From Octopus vulgaris (taxonomy: Eukaryota), in assembly GCA_951406725.2 (NCBI GenBank), contig OX597835.1, forward strand, positions 49,166,001 through 49,230,000: a DNA stretch of 64,000 nt, given 5' to 3'. The first letter of the stretch is position 1, and each line of letters starts with the position of its first letter. Under the pieces are notes generated by a model. That model was not told where the DNA came from. It made no database searches and worked only from the letters and a program-made list of their open reading frames with translations. Position numbers and translations under genes: made by a program. Positions 56,268 through 60,419 of the stretch are shown piece by piece.

Positions 56268-56523
56268 CAACGTTCTAATAAGCCATTCATCTAAAGTTGG
56301 ATCTAATGGTTGTCTTTTGGTAATATCGCTTCCGTCGCTAATAATTAATTTTTAATAATCCTGCTGATTATTTGTGACATCGGTGTCCGAAATGATGCTG
56401 ATCTGGCGATGCAGTGACCAGACGCTTCCCGCTGACGATTTCCAGTAGAATGAAATCACAGGATATGGGAGTTCCAACACATATGTCTGCTATGATCTGT
56501 CTGCTTTTGTGCCAACACACACA

Positions 56524-56568
<45 letters not shown>

Positions 56569-56600
56569 TTTATTTTAAGCAGCAGAAAATTCAACAAAAT

Positions 56601-56638
56601 CTGTTACTCTGAGTTTCTCGTTGCCGTTCATCAGACAG
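56601..56638 (-). ncRNA. Minimal type I hammerhead ribozyme motif (mirror copy)
   Basis: CUGU CUGAUGA A-CG-GCAA-CG-A GAAA CUC A GAG UA ACAG. Confidence 0.7.
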
Positions 56639-56654
56639 TTTTTGCTAGCAAAAA

Positions 56655-56691
56655 CTGTCTGATGAACGGCACGAGAAACTCAGAGTAACAG
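56655..56691 (+). ncRNA. Minimal type I hammerhead ribozyme motif
   Basis: Stem I CUGU/ACAG, CUGAUGA, short stem II, GAAA, stem III ACUC-A-GAGU, GUA cleavage triplet. Confidence 0.65.
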
Positions 56692-56793
56692 ATTTTGTTG
56701 AATTTTCTGCTGCTTAAAATAAAGCATATTACTCTACCACTGGTATTTGAGTACTCTTTTTTCCACCTTGTTTCACATTTATGTGTTTACTCC

Positions 56794-56839
<46 letters not shown>

Positions 56840-56869
56840 GAGGAACTTAAAAACGATAAAAACGTTTTA

Positions 56870-57267
56870 TCCTCTTCTACTCTAGGTAAAAGGCCTGAAA
56901 TTTGGGGGGAGGGGGGCCAGTTGATTAGATCGACCCCAGTACGCAACTGGTACTTGATTTATCGACCCCGAAAGGATGAAAGGCAAAGTCGACGTCGGCG
57001 GAATTTGAACTCAGAGCGTAAAGACAGACAAAATACCTAATTCTTTACTACCTACAAGGGGCTAAACACAGAAGGGACAAACAAGAACAGACAAACGGAT
57101 TAAGTCGATTATATCGACCCCAGTGCGTAAATGGTACTTAATTTATCGACCCCGAAAGGATGAAAGGCAAAGTCGACCACGGCGGAATTTGAACTCAGAA
57201 CATAACGGCAGACGAAATACGGCTACGCATTTCGCCCGGCGTGCTAACGTTTCTGCCAGCTCGCCAC
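56870..57267 (-). mobile_element. SINE family B dimer
   Basis: Two bodies plus head, reverse complement of the 34854 element; imperfect flanking duplication GATAAAAA..TTTTAT. Confidence 0.88.
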
Positions 57268-57299
57268 CAAAGTGATAAAAAGCATTTTATAGTAATGTT

Positions 57300-58999
57300 T
57301 ATTTCTTTATTCACCATACGGTTTTATACAGGGGGGACATTACAACACATTGGGGACACAAAACATCAAAGAAATAGTCAAATGATAGGATGGAAAAACG
57401 GGTGATAGATGAGAGGTGAAAGTGATGTTAACTGCCCCATCAGTCAAAATCACTTACTTGTCCTTTTCCTATTTCACCGAAAAATCCACAAAATCCCCAA
57501 AATTTAACCCGTATATTTTCCAGAGTTCATCTCTATTTTCCTGTACTAATCTTCCCCTAATCTGCACATATACATCACCAAGTTTATTCTTAAGTTCTTT
57601 CACTTGCTCTTCCGACAATACTCCTTCCATCCCTTCATCCCATCTACCTGGAATTTCTACCTTTCCCCATATTTTTAACCTTTCATATAAATATTCACTG
57701 TCTCTTATCCCTATACAATATTCTTCAGGGTGGGAGTTTTGTGTAATCATTTGTTTGCATGTTTTCTTGTTGGTGGGGGAGTGGGTGAGTTTGGTGTCTG
57801 CGGGGACAGGGTGGGCCACAATGGGTTAGGGTGGTGCTGGCGTGGGTTGGGGTTCACATTCACTTGCCTTTTTTCTTTTTCGCTGTTTTCTTTTTCCTGG
57901 GGTTTCCCATTCTTTTCCATCTTCCTTCACTTGTCTCTCTTCTTCTGTTTCTTTCTATTCCTCCTGGGGTGTTTCTGTTTCTTCCGTTGTTTCTTTGATT
58001 ATTTCCTTCACTACTGTAGTGCAGTTTGCTCTTATGTGGTCTTTCAGCCCGCATTTATAATATCGAGGGCCTTTGCCCTCCACCCATACTCTCATTGTTA
58101 AGTCGTTAGTCGTAATGGTTTCTGAGTTTCTGATAAACTTTGTAAAATTTCCATTTCCGCTTGGACGCTCATTTCCAGCGTCCCACCTCTTCATCCTCCT
58201 TCCTCTGTTATAGTCGCTTGGACTATATCAACTTTCTCCTCATTTCCAACGATAACCGCTGCTACAAATAATTCCGCGTCGATATCTGGTGGTATTCTGT
58301 CCACCCTAATCCTTGTGGCTCTTCTCCCCAGATAAGTGGGTAGAAGTGTTACCATGTCAGTTTTTATTATCTTTGCAGCCATTCTTCTTGCTGTTTCCTC
58401 GTTTTTGTACTGTACCACCACTGTGGCATACTTGTTTCCTCTTGCGAGGAAGATTATCTCTTCCTCTGTTGTTTTTTAGGGCTTCCTCTACCGTTTCCAT
58501 GCTTATTATATCCACTTTTTTCTTTTCGTTAGCAAATACTCGGTACGTTATTTTCTTTCTTTCCATTCTGTTCTTTTTCCTGTTCGACAGCAATAATTCC
58601 GCCTCTCCGTTTTCCCTTTTAATCATATCTTGGCATTCCGGTAACTTTGCCAAATTCATTTCCTTTTTCACTGGTTTTGTTGCTCCTGCATATGTCCTTC
58701 CTTGTAAGACCATGTCCATCTTTCTTACTTGCTTCCACGAACTCTTCTTCGGAAGATGATAAGTCCGACTCACCTCCATTCCTCCTTTTGTCACCTCCAT
58801 TCCTCCTCTTAACGAGGGAAAACTCATTTTCCTTCGCCTGTCTCAAACAGACAGACTAAATTCAACAGTGAAAATCAATAAAAACTAATAAAACTTGTAA
58901 ATAAAACCGACTTTTCAGAATTCCCAACAGAACCGAACGCGTAACGCCGTTTTCACAGTCTTCACCGCACGAGCTCAAAAAAACACAAAGAAAAAACAA
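57300..58999 (-). mobile_element. ORF1-only L1/Tx1-type non-LTR element (HAL1-like), bounded by a 17-bp TSD
   Basis: TSD CATTTTAT(A/C)GTAATGTT at 57283-99 and 59000-16; 5' UTR, frameshifted ORF1, ~170-bp 3' UTR ending AATAAAGAAATA. Confidence 0.8.
57469..58827 (-). pseudogene. L1/Tx1-type ORF1 (gag-like nucleic-acid-binding protein), frameshifted
   Basis: RTYAGATK; VVQYKNEETARR..YLGRRATRIRVDRIPPDI (RRM-like); RVWVEGKGPRYYKCGLKDHIRANC (CX2CX4HX4C knuckle, first C>Y); acidic/basic linker EWETPGKRK. Confidence 0.8.
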
Positions 59000-59582
59000 C
59001 ATTTTATCGTAATGTTAAGTTAAACAGGTGTACACAGACATTTTTATACTGCACTGTAAGGTCAGGATGAAGTCCATTGTCAAAATAGAGGAAGCTAGGT
59101 GTAATTAGCCAAACTGTAAAACTATAACAAATTGGCAAGACCCTGGCAAACCTTTATAAACAGACATAATTGTACTTGTGGCAGGTTGTGTAATAATTTG
59201 GCTATTTTCTGTTAAGATAAATGTTAAAATTTGTATAAATAACTGGAATGTGCATGAATAAAATTTTCATTTCGCCCATTTTTTGTATTAGACAACTAAT
59301 TGTAAATTTTGTCTAATGGTTACTCAGCATGATCGTATGAAGCAGTTTTGTAAGAATTTAAAGCAACCTAGATTTTTTGGGTTTTACTATTTTAATTTCT
59401 TTAACTATAATTATTGATGCAGTCTGGCAGCCGTTTTGTGTCATGAACTTTGAGTTTAAATGGTTGCTTTGACATTAGATTTATTTATGTTTAGGTCCAA
59501 GGTTCGAAACCCAGGTTTTGAATACCGAATTTGTGAAGCCACATTTTATGAAATCTAAATTTTCGAAATCCATATTTTCGGC

Positions 59583-60419
59583 AGATCTTTTCGGCAAATT
59601 TTTAAAATAATTTCTTTGTAACTAAACACTTTTAAACTTCGTATGCTGGTAGAATGTGTTTATAAAACATCTTTTTCTCTGTGGCCATAAACTGAGGAGT
59701 CACTCGTAAACAGAGCTGGATAACAAAACCGTTCCCTCTTTAGTGCCCACCCATAATTAGGACCCTAGTATCGATCTATTGCATTTCAATCTGTTTTAGG
59801 GTTAGGGTTAGGGTTAGGGTTAGGGTTAGAGTTAGGGTTAGGGTTAGGGTTAGAGTTAGGGTTAGTGTTAGGGTTAGGGTTAGAGTTAGGGTTAGGGTTA
59901 GGGGTTAGGGTTAGGGATAGAGTTAGGGTTAGGGTTAGGGTTAAGGTTAGGGGTGGGGGGAAGGGTATCTTTTTTCTTCAGAAATGTAAATAAACCCAAT
60001 CTGTTTCTTAAACGAATATATAATATGTAATGTGTGCAACAGAGAGGGAAATTAAAACTGCGTATGTTGTGAACTTAGAATATGTGTTTATTAATAAAAG
60101 TTTAATAACGATAATCTTTTATTCATACGAACGTAACTGATATGAAATATGTCATAAATAACAGGGACATTTTCTTATGACACTGCAAATAATTGTTGTT
60201 GACACACTACGGCAGAAATTGAATTCCCCTCAATAGACGTCATTGATTGGTTGAAATTGCCGAAATGCAAGAAATTAAGCTTACAAACTACATAATTTTC
60301 TCAAGAAAGCCAAAATAAAAAGATGTTTTATAAACACATTCTACCAGTATACGAAGTTTAAAAGTGTTTAGTTACAAAGAAATTATTTTAAAAATCTGCC
60401 GGTCAAAGTGAAATGATCC
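59583..60419. mobile_element. TTAGGG-bearing MITE with ~100-bp TIRs (same family as 46257-47400)
   Basis: AGATCTTTTCGGCAAATTTTTAAAATAATTTCTTTGTAACTAAACACTTTTAAACTTCGTAT.. mirrored at 60318-60419; shared internal sequence with the 46257 copy; TSD not evident. Confidence 0.85.
59796..59952 (+). repeat. Interstitial (TTAGGG)n, roughly 25 units with TTAGAG variants
   Basis: Direct reading. Confidence 0.95.

Follow-up and report, generated by a model that had tools for sequence, protein, structure and literature searches.

Non-autonomous LINEs with ORF1 present are known from three clades, represented by HeT-A (Jockey), HAL1 (L1) and Ag-Sponge (CR1) (PMC5786205). HAL1 is non-autonomous, harbors ORF1 only, has long kept its coding capacity and has several origins (PMC5753468, PMC3627910). 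The ORF1-only element HeT-A of Drosophila is found in head-to-tail, same-direction arrays together with its autonomous partner TART/TAHRE (PMC5537684). Tx1 elements target non-autonomous piggyBac and Mariner copies, and tandems of SINEU occur at such a site (PMC4494074). The tandem arrays of R1 were attributed to recurrent insertion at a single site and later expansion, with site preference explaining the tandems (10.1101/158386). In octopus, 80 families of L1-Tx1 have been counted, 13 of them recently active (PMC13282606). All of these papers are cited for excerpts; the excerpts of PMC13282606 make no mention of ORF1-only elements, although its deposited library may contain the units, and those of PMC8967140 and PMC11203168 hold nothing on ORF1-only elements of octopus. 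Neither ORF1-only Tx1 elements in cephalopods nor a Helitron-targeting Tx1 was found described in the literature searched, which lies outside Repbase, Dfam and subscription papers. ORF1-only LINEs and the targeting of DNA transposons by Tx1 are each known, and their combination was not found in that literature. A preliminary description of the locus reported here had regarded ORF1-only families as known mainly from vertebrates; HeT-A and Ag-Sponge extend them to invertebrates (PMC5786205, in part).

The element under study occupies positions 57283-59016 on the reverse strand of the window, a 64,000-nucleotide stretch of Octopus vulgaris DNA (GCA_951406725.2, contig OX597835.1, 49,166,001 to 49,230,000). 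It is very probably a dead copy of a family that likely arose from a Tx1-type LINE by deletion of ORF2 and is likely copied in trans by a LINE of the L1/Tx1 group. The 1.7-kb element lies between 17-bp repeats on the same strand, CATTTTATCGTAATGTT at its 5' end (59000..59016) and CATTTTATAGTAATGTT at its 3' end (57283..57299), which differ by one mismatch, as described before. No other non-simple pair of 17-mers with at most one mismatch occurs in 56500-59800, if a SINE dimer and an internal duplication of 21 bp are set aside. The pair is a true target site duplication (TSD), because copies of the surrounding repeat that lack the insert (L140, L154 and L142) hold this site only once. This high-copy, unclassified host repeat (best 40 of 1033 candidates scored) covers 59017..59580 on the reverse strand and continues at 57270-57282 and 56837-56862. 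A SINE-like dimer (56863..57268), flanked by its own 13-bp duplication (56850-56862 and 57269-57281), lies 13 bp from the 3' TSD of the element and was inserted later or independently. Elsewhere in the window, a near-perfect palindrome of ~140 bp (56577-56715; fold-back or MITE-like) lies between TA microsatellites, and a degenerate interstitial TTAGGG-type repeat (59790-59910) adjoins the host repeat.

All parts of the element are read from the reverse strand. The 5' UTR (58828..58999) is full length relative to other copies, and with 172 nt and 43% T it is T-rich as first noted. ORF1 extends over 453 codons from the ATG at 58827 to the TAG at 57469 (57469..58827), in accordance with the ~450 frameshifted codons of the preliminary description, but the damage is greater than stated there and comprises four frameshifts (two compensating pairs) and three in-frame stops. 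The 3' UTR of 169 nt ends in AATAAAGAAATA and has no poly(A) tract; the element has no space for ORF2, and the earlier figure of ~170 bp, too short for an endonuclease or reverse transcriptase (RT), holds. Its 3' tail (57300..57365), with an AATAAA-type end, is common to sister families and to LINEs of the L1/Tx1 group. A Pfam search of the five ORF fragments of the window copy gave no match, and this copy is a dead fossil of its family.

The core of ORF1 was modelled from an intact relative (L004; 19 sequences, pLDDT 80). The model resembles tandem-RRM proteins, which are at the top of the Foldseek list (best E 5e-5). Its first domain, corresponding approximately to 58321..58590 in the window, matches the RRM of La (Z 9.6, rmsd 2.4, 81 aligned), and its second, RRM/ferredoxin-like domain (approximately 58075..58320) matches folds of the RRM/ACT/NikR type (Z ~8). 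These domains are followed by a CCHC zinc knuckle (58021..58062), detected as zf-CCHC in 17 of the 19 relatives at E<=1 (best 4e-5). The RRM-like and CCHC motifs proposed previously therefore stand on the evidence of intact relatives, whereas in the window copy the first Cys of the knuckle is a Tyr and Pfam was blank. Transposase_22 was not matched by any of the 19 core sequences or four full ORF1s. The combination of RRM and CCHC defines type I ORF1 and has been tied to Tx1 in non-mammalian animals (PMC5203782, in part). Since ORF1 is of this type, it is Tx1-like rather than that of mammalian HAL1 proper. The model of the C-terminal alpha/beta domain (57472..57735; pLDDT 78) had no Foldseek match at E<=0.001, and its fold is not called new.

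Purifying selection on ORF1 was evident from 12 window-type copies. In the core, the substitutions shared between copies comprised 108 synonymous and 84 non-synonymous changes (ratio ~0.21), and the private ones 80 and 187 (ratio 0.64; Fisher p 2e-8). Pairwise dN/dS had medians of 0.23 (core), 0.26 (C-terminal domain) and 0.55 (low-complexity linker); between the window element and its nearest copy the value was 0.74. Such a pattern is to be expected if source lineages are under selection and copies decay neutrally once inserted. Several pieces of ORF1 are annotated as octopus genes, either hypothetical or EPM2A-interacting 1-like (P0126, P0001-P0005 and P0138). Among named proteins, those of Octopus vulgaris have matches of 79-97% to a young sister ORF, and remoter relatives come from O. 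bimaculoides, O. sinensis and Argonauta. Some relatives (P0142, P0276-P0278 and P0132) come from contigs of 1.7-1.9 kb, about one unit in length, and are possibly ORF1-only elements of other species.

A DNA search of the 2.8-Gb genome with the window element yielded 49 matches (best 40 of 660 candidates scored), including seven other near-full-length copies with 76-89% identity to it and many 5'-truncated copies, all with a common 3' end. Six loci have TSDs of their own of 14-21 bp (L005, L006, L007, L012, L015 and L030); a TSD was looked for and not found in L002, L003 and L008, and that of L004 is doubtful. TSDs, a fixed 3' end and 5'-truncated copies are signs of retrotransposition, and the family constitutes a multi-copy unit in which the 5' part of a LINE and ORF1 are joined to a LINE 3' end without ORF2. 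Among 60 loci combined from the DNA search and a protein search, ORF1 could be scored in 51, none of which showed homology to ORF2 downstream of ORF1 within the available 0.6-2.3 kb; in most of them a tail is located ~700 bp past the knuckle. As the searches scored the best 40-150 of up to 23,812 candidates, an unseen ORF2-bearing member is possible. The junction between ORF1 and the 3' UTR is common to all 11 aligned copies that cover it. It retains a motif (GTAAGTGATG in other copies, 57448..57459 on the reverse strand of the window), and the LINE described below carries GTAAGTAATG between the ORF1 stop and the ORF2 start codon. The motif therefore appears to be the scar of a deletion that removed ORF2 from just after its start codon in the ancestor of the ORF1-only family. 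The consensus of 5' splice donors is AG/GTAAGT; the spacer fits it in all families, in the LINE as in the ORF1-only units, and no spliced form was seen. The window subfamily shows 42 different 3' flanks; a common host repeat was seen in four small groups only, one of which contains the window element and L012, inserted in the same repeat 5 bp apart. This older subfamily is mostly dispersed and not strictly site-specific.

The phylogenetic tree of ORF1 (29 rows) grouped the window family with the young array families in a single 14-row clade (100/100) that has a long stem. Two further ORF1-only types are positioned elsewhere, one of them with an O. bimaculoides protein (100/99), and the ORF1s of LINEs fall separately outside the 14-row clade, that of the putative helper LINE described below being only 32-34% identical to the window family. 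Because these types occupy separate places in the tree, there are at least three ORF1-only lineages. Among the best candidates scored, no ORF2-bearing LINE was found whose ORF1 is close to that of the window family and which could represent the parent of the main clade.

The main feature of the family lies outside the window and consists of arrays targeted to a Helitron. The protein search revealed a young family with intact ORFs and a period of ~1.75 kb (best 114 of 18,991 candidates scored). Among 22 loci examined, 16 picked by matches to the young family and six as occupied Helitrons, the inserts lie inside a ~1.05 kb repeat with Helitron ends at 21, the exception being C14 (53.07-53.09 Mb), which has no Helitron flanks. 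Non-autonomous Helitrons are recognized by 5' TC, 3' CTAG, a hairpin near the 3' end, A/T insertion and the lack of a TSD. The repeat belongs to this class, with 5' TC after A, a hairpin, CTAG before T and no TSD; the hairpin folds at the expected place, not more strongly than shuffled sequences (z -0.75). The arrays run head-to-tail with 1 to 15 units per locus, six loci having at least 10, and the last unit is joined at one and the same base, before ACATGGAGGAAAG, at all 21 Helitron loci. Young sister families and an intact LINE are co-located at this base, the LINE being the 3'-most unit in 10 of the 11 mixed arrays. The 30 best Helitron matches comprised nine occupied copies (one of them the query), 19 empty copies and two deleted at the site. 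An Rfam search of five array flanks gave no match, so that no snRNA, tRNA or rRNA serves as a target there. The arrays are interstitial, one example lying at 138.8 of 215.6 Mb of C2.

Unit heads start with target-like sequences (ACATG, ACGTG or ACGCG), and many junctions duplicate 15-20 bp of the unit's own 5' end; several have no duplication, and many left ends are short of ~25 bp of the target. Most arrays have a mosaic composition, their units being 1-10 mismatches away from those on other contigs. On C2, the array is homogeneous locally, with mostly 0-5 mismatches within it and 15-22 to units outside, and its heads differ nonetheless. Units shared their 3' junction type in 45 of 83 cases against 30 expected by a test of inheritance, a hint only, the units not being independent. 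Some units start with left-arm sequence of the Helitron, suggesting that they are transcribed from it. Both the young unit and the LINE are covered by contigs of four runs tentatively taken as RNA, and some of these contigs join them to Helitron sequence on either side; the window copy had almost no coverage in three runs of this kind, and these observations do not count as evidence here. Frameshifts at A-runs in young copies may be assembly errors. The right arm of the Helitron (L067:3750-4050 and other copies) holds a decayed Tx1-type ORF1 fragment that is ~35% identical to ORF1 of the LINE and contains the insertion site. At two loci (L201:5500-7800 and L205:6270-8540), an older ORF1-only copy within another repeat was found, this repeat having itself entered the same Helitron ~80 bp upstream of the main site.

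The LINE in these arrays is 5.26 kb long and intact, with ORF1 and an ORF2 of 1132 aa. ORF2 contains the Pfam domains Exo_endo_phos, RVT_1 and zf-RVT, i.e. an APE endonuclease, an RT and a C-terminal zinc finger, and its closest solved relative is human L1 ORF2p (8e-65, compared with 5e-26 for R2). Type I ORF1 (RRM and CCHC), this ORF2 domain set and the preference of the young elements for a repeat target are features of Tx1; the RT was compared with the L1 group and R2 only, and the Tx1 label rests on the other features. Among 150 scored LINE matches, 34 have 99% identity across the C-terminal 199 aa and many retain a complete ORF2, in keeping with a very young and apparently active element. 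At 30 young LINE 3' ends, 23 adjoin the right arm of the Helitron and four adjoin another unit via the target duplication, giving 27 of 30 at the Helitron target (counted by eye); the preference holds for all 21 young arrays and is not strict for the older subfamily of the window. Two others adjoin a tRNA-like sequence starting with ACATGG (L249 and L250), a possible secondary target, and one adjoins something else. Autonomous LINE tandems with a period of ~5.26 kb occur on C12 (75.76-75.77 Mb), C3 (34.86 Mb), C4 (143.17 Mb), C27 (32.96-32.98 Mb) and C22 (14.23-14.24 Mb); in the three that were read, the target duplication separates the units. A programmed frameshift was considered for split LINE ORF1s and rejected, as the breaks track A-run length and one copy reads through.

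Comparison of 3' tails links the window element to such LINEs. Compared with the tail of an older C12 LINE, the window tail scored 53, where 1000 shuffles reached at most 30; its match to the young LINE is weak, with a score of 35 and at most 31 in 1000 shuffles; and the tail of one ORF1-only lineage is nearly identical to that of the young LINE (43/47 nt). With a 3' end resembling those of L1/Tx1-group LINEs, a junction common to many ~1.7-kb copies, several with their own TSDs, and dN/dS well below 1 on ORF1, the three tests proposed in the preliminary description came out in favor of its reading of the element as a non-autonomous, protein-coding parasite of an L1/Tx1 element. No significant folding of tail RNA was detected (z 0.56, -0.08 and -1.64). 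L182, in which ORF2 is followed by a window-type tail, was rejected as a helper, since its ORF2 is 280 aa short and it has no upstream ORF1.

The common tail and target suggest that ORF1-only units are mobilized in trans by the ORF2 protein of the partner. ORF1-only RNA would make its own ORF1 protein, which would package that RNA in cis, and the ORF2 protein of the LINE would bind the common 3' tail and perform target-primed reverse transcription at a nick that would precede ACATGG in the Helitron or fall at the 5' ends of units already present, which resemble this site. Because the nick would also fall at these target-like 5' ends, each insertion would likely renew the target and trains could grow through repeated insertion, some being then lengthened through local amplification. 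The helper of the window's older subfamily would likely have had looser specificity or other targets, because this subfamily is mostly dispersed. The same dispersal, together with a window tail that is closer to the older C12 LINE than to the young LINE and differs from other LINE tails in the genome, could also imply that the older subfamily owed its mobility to another LINE, perhaps now extinct, and that only the young sisters use the Helitron-targeting helper, which we rate at slightly under an even chance. However, this would alter only the identity of the helper: one motif is common to all tails, and both LINEs belong to the same group (60-79% ORF2 identity).

Growth of the trains by repeated insertion in trans must be weighed against the formation of each array in a single event, in which the RT of the LINE would copy its own RNA at the nick and then jump to ORF1-only RNAs in the same particle. 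The terminal position of the LINE in mixed arrays would follow from such jumping, which also accords with mosaic arrays whose units are often nearest to those on other contigs and with the presence inside arrays of 5'-truncated units of 289-372 bp and Helitron-derived 5' extensions without target duplication. Moreover, a simple birth model at 30% occupancy predicts 0.004-0.03 loci with at least 10 units, compared with the six seen, although at 50% occupancy it gives 0.6-5, and the loci were picked by a search that favors arrays. On the other hand, the frequent duplication of a unit's own 5' end at junctions is what sequential insertion predicts, 10 of 21 loci have no full LINE behind the train or have a single insert, and the target duplication is kept in LINE-LINE tandems. 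The data fit both sequential insertion and template jumping, the latter being in our judgment a possible but rather unlikely origin of the arrays.

It is improbable that the trains are composite elements spread by transposition of the Helitron itself, or that they represent one LINE with many copies of ORF1, even though both Helitron flanks are common to the 21 loci and some left junctions recur at several of them. LINE copies differ by 0.1-0.7% at six loci and by 4-4.6% at a seventh, whereas divergence of the Helitron arms at the same six loci is 4.6-7.7%, on a par with that of empty copies. The flanks are thus ~10x more diverged than the LINEs (7.4% to each other and 7.3% to empty copies), and in a weakly resolved tree the occupied Helitrons are interspersed with the empty ones, evidence that insertion was independent and site-specific. 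In addition, the number and order of units differ at every locus, and lone ORF1-only units and lone truncated LINEs exist. Finally, although atlas look-alikes include a ZCCHC3 RNA-binding-domain cluster at 0.90 and some copies are annotated as hypothetical genes, the idea of an isolated internal deletion within a LINE, or of a processed pseudogene derived from a spliced host RRM-CCHC gene (ZCCHC3-like), either of which the preliminary description had named as grounds for abandoning its reading, is refuted by the family structure and hardly credible, given the invariant junction, the lack of copies running into ORF2 among the 51 loci scored, selection on the branches between subfamilies, the LINE-like tail and spacer and the homology to the LINE's own ORF1.

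The octopus family adds a fourth source of ORF1-only LINEs, Tx1-type and from a mollusc, to the three in the excerpts of PMC5786205. Intact, near-identical copies of helper and passenger make it directly testable why a non-autonomous element keeps ORF1. The arrays represent satellite-like DNA built at a defined site out of protein-coding retroelements, and the helper LINE, which appears to be active, inserts with base precision into a target that exists in many copies and is probably harmless. ORF1s annotated as hypothetical octopus genes also inflate gene sets.

Like HAL1, the octopus family is non-autonomous, carries only ORF1 and has kept its coding capacity. Copies of L1 end in a poly(A) tail. 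Octopus copies, unlike HAL1, end at AATAAA-type motifs directly on the TSD without a poly(A) tract; their ORF1 has two RRM-type domains, CCHC and a different C-terminal domain instead of Transposase_22, their host is a mollusc, and the young families form site-specific arrays. The earlier label "HAL1-like" therefore applies to the ORF1-only way of life and not to ORF1 itself, which is Tx1-type: the octopus family works like HAL1 but is not HAL1 in the strict sense. It likewise shares with Ag-Sponge the character of a non-autonomous LINE with ORF1 present, although Ag-Sponge belongs to the CR1 clade (PMC5786205, in part). According to excerpts of PMC4494074, the targeting of a non-autonomous DNA transposon by a LINE parallels Tx1 in Tx1D and Tx1-Mar/SINEU in Mariner-N4_AMi, where non-autonomous passengers also have the same target and occur in tandems around a TSD. 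Nevertheless, the octopus target is a Helitron, its passengers are protein-coding, and its arrays reach 15 units with several families mixed. R1 arrays differ in being formed by an autonomous element of the R1 clade in rDNA. The arrays, with ORF1-only units head-to-tail and mixed with an autonomous partner, resemble those of HeT-A; unlike the Jockey-derived, telomeric HeT-A, they are interstitial, inside a Helitron and with an L1/Tx1-group partner. HeT-A takes its promoter from the upstream unit, and the Helitron-derived 5' extensions of octopus units hint at a similarly upstream start. We tentatively propose, with a little less than even confidence, that the system is an octopus interstitial counterpart of HeT-A/TART, in which long-lived ORF1-only lineages, at least three in number, would share one nick site with a single active Tx1-type LINE in a promoter-supplying, non-autonomous Helitron and build self-renewing trains of up to 30 kb, either via 5' ends that mimic the target or by RT jumping from the LINE RNA onto ORF1-only RNAs.
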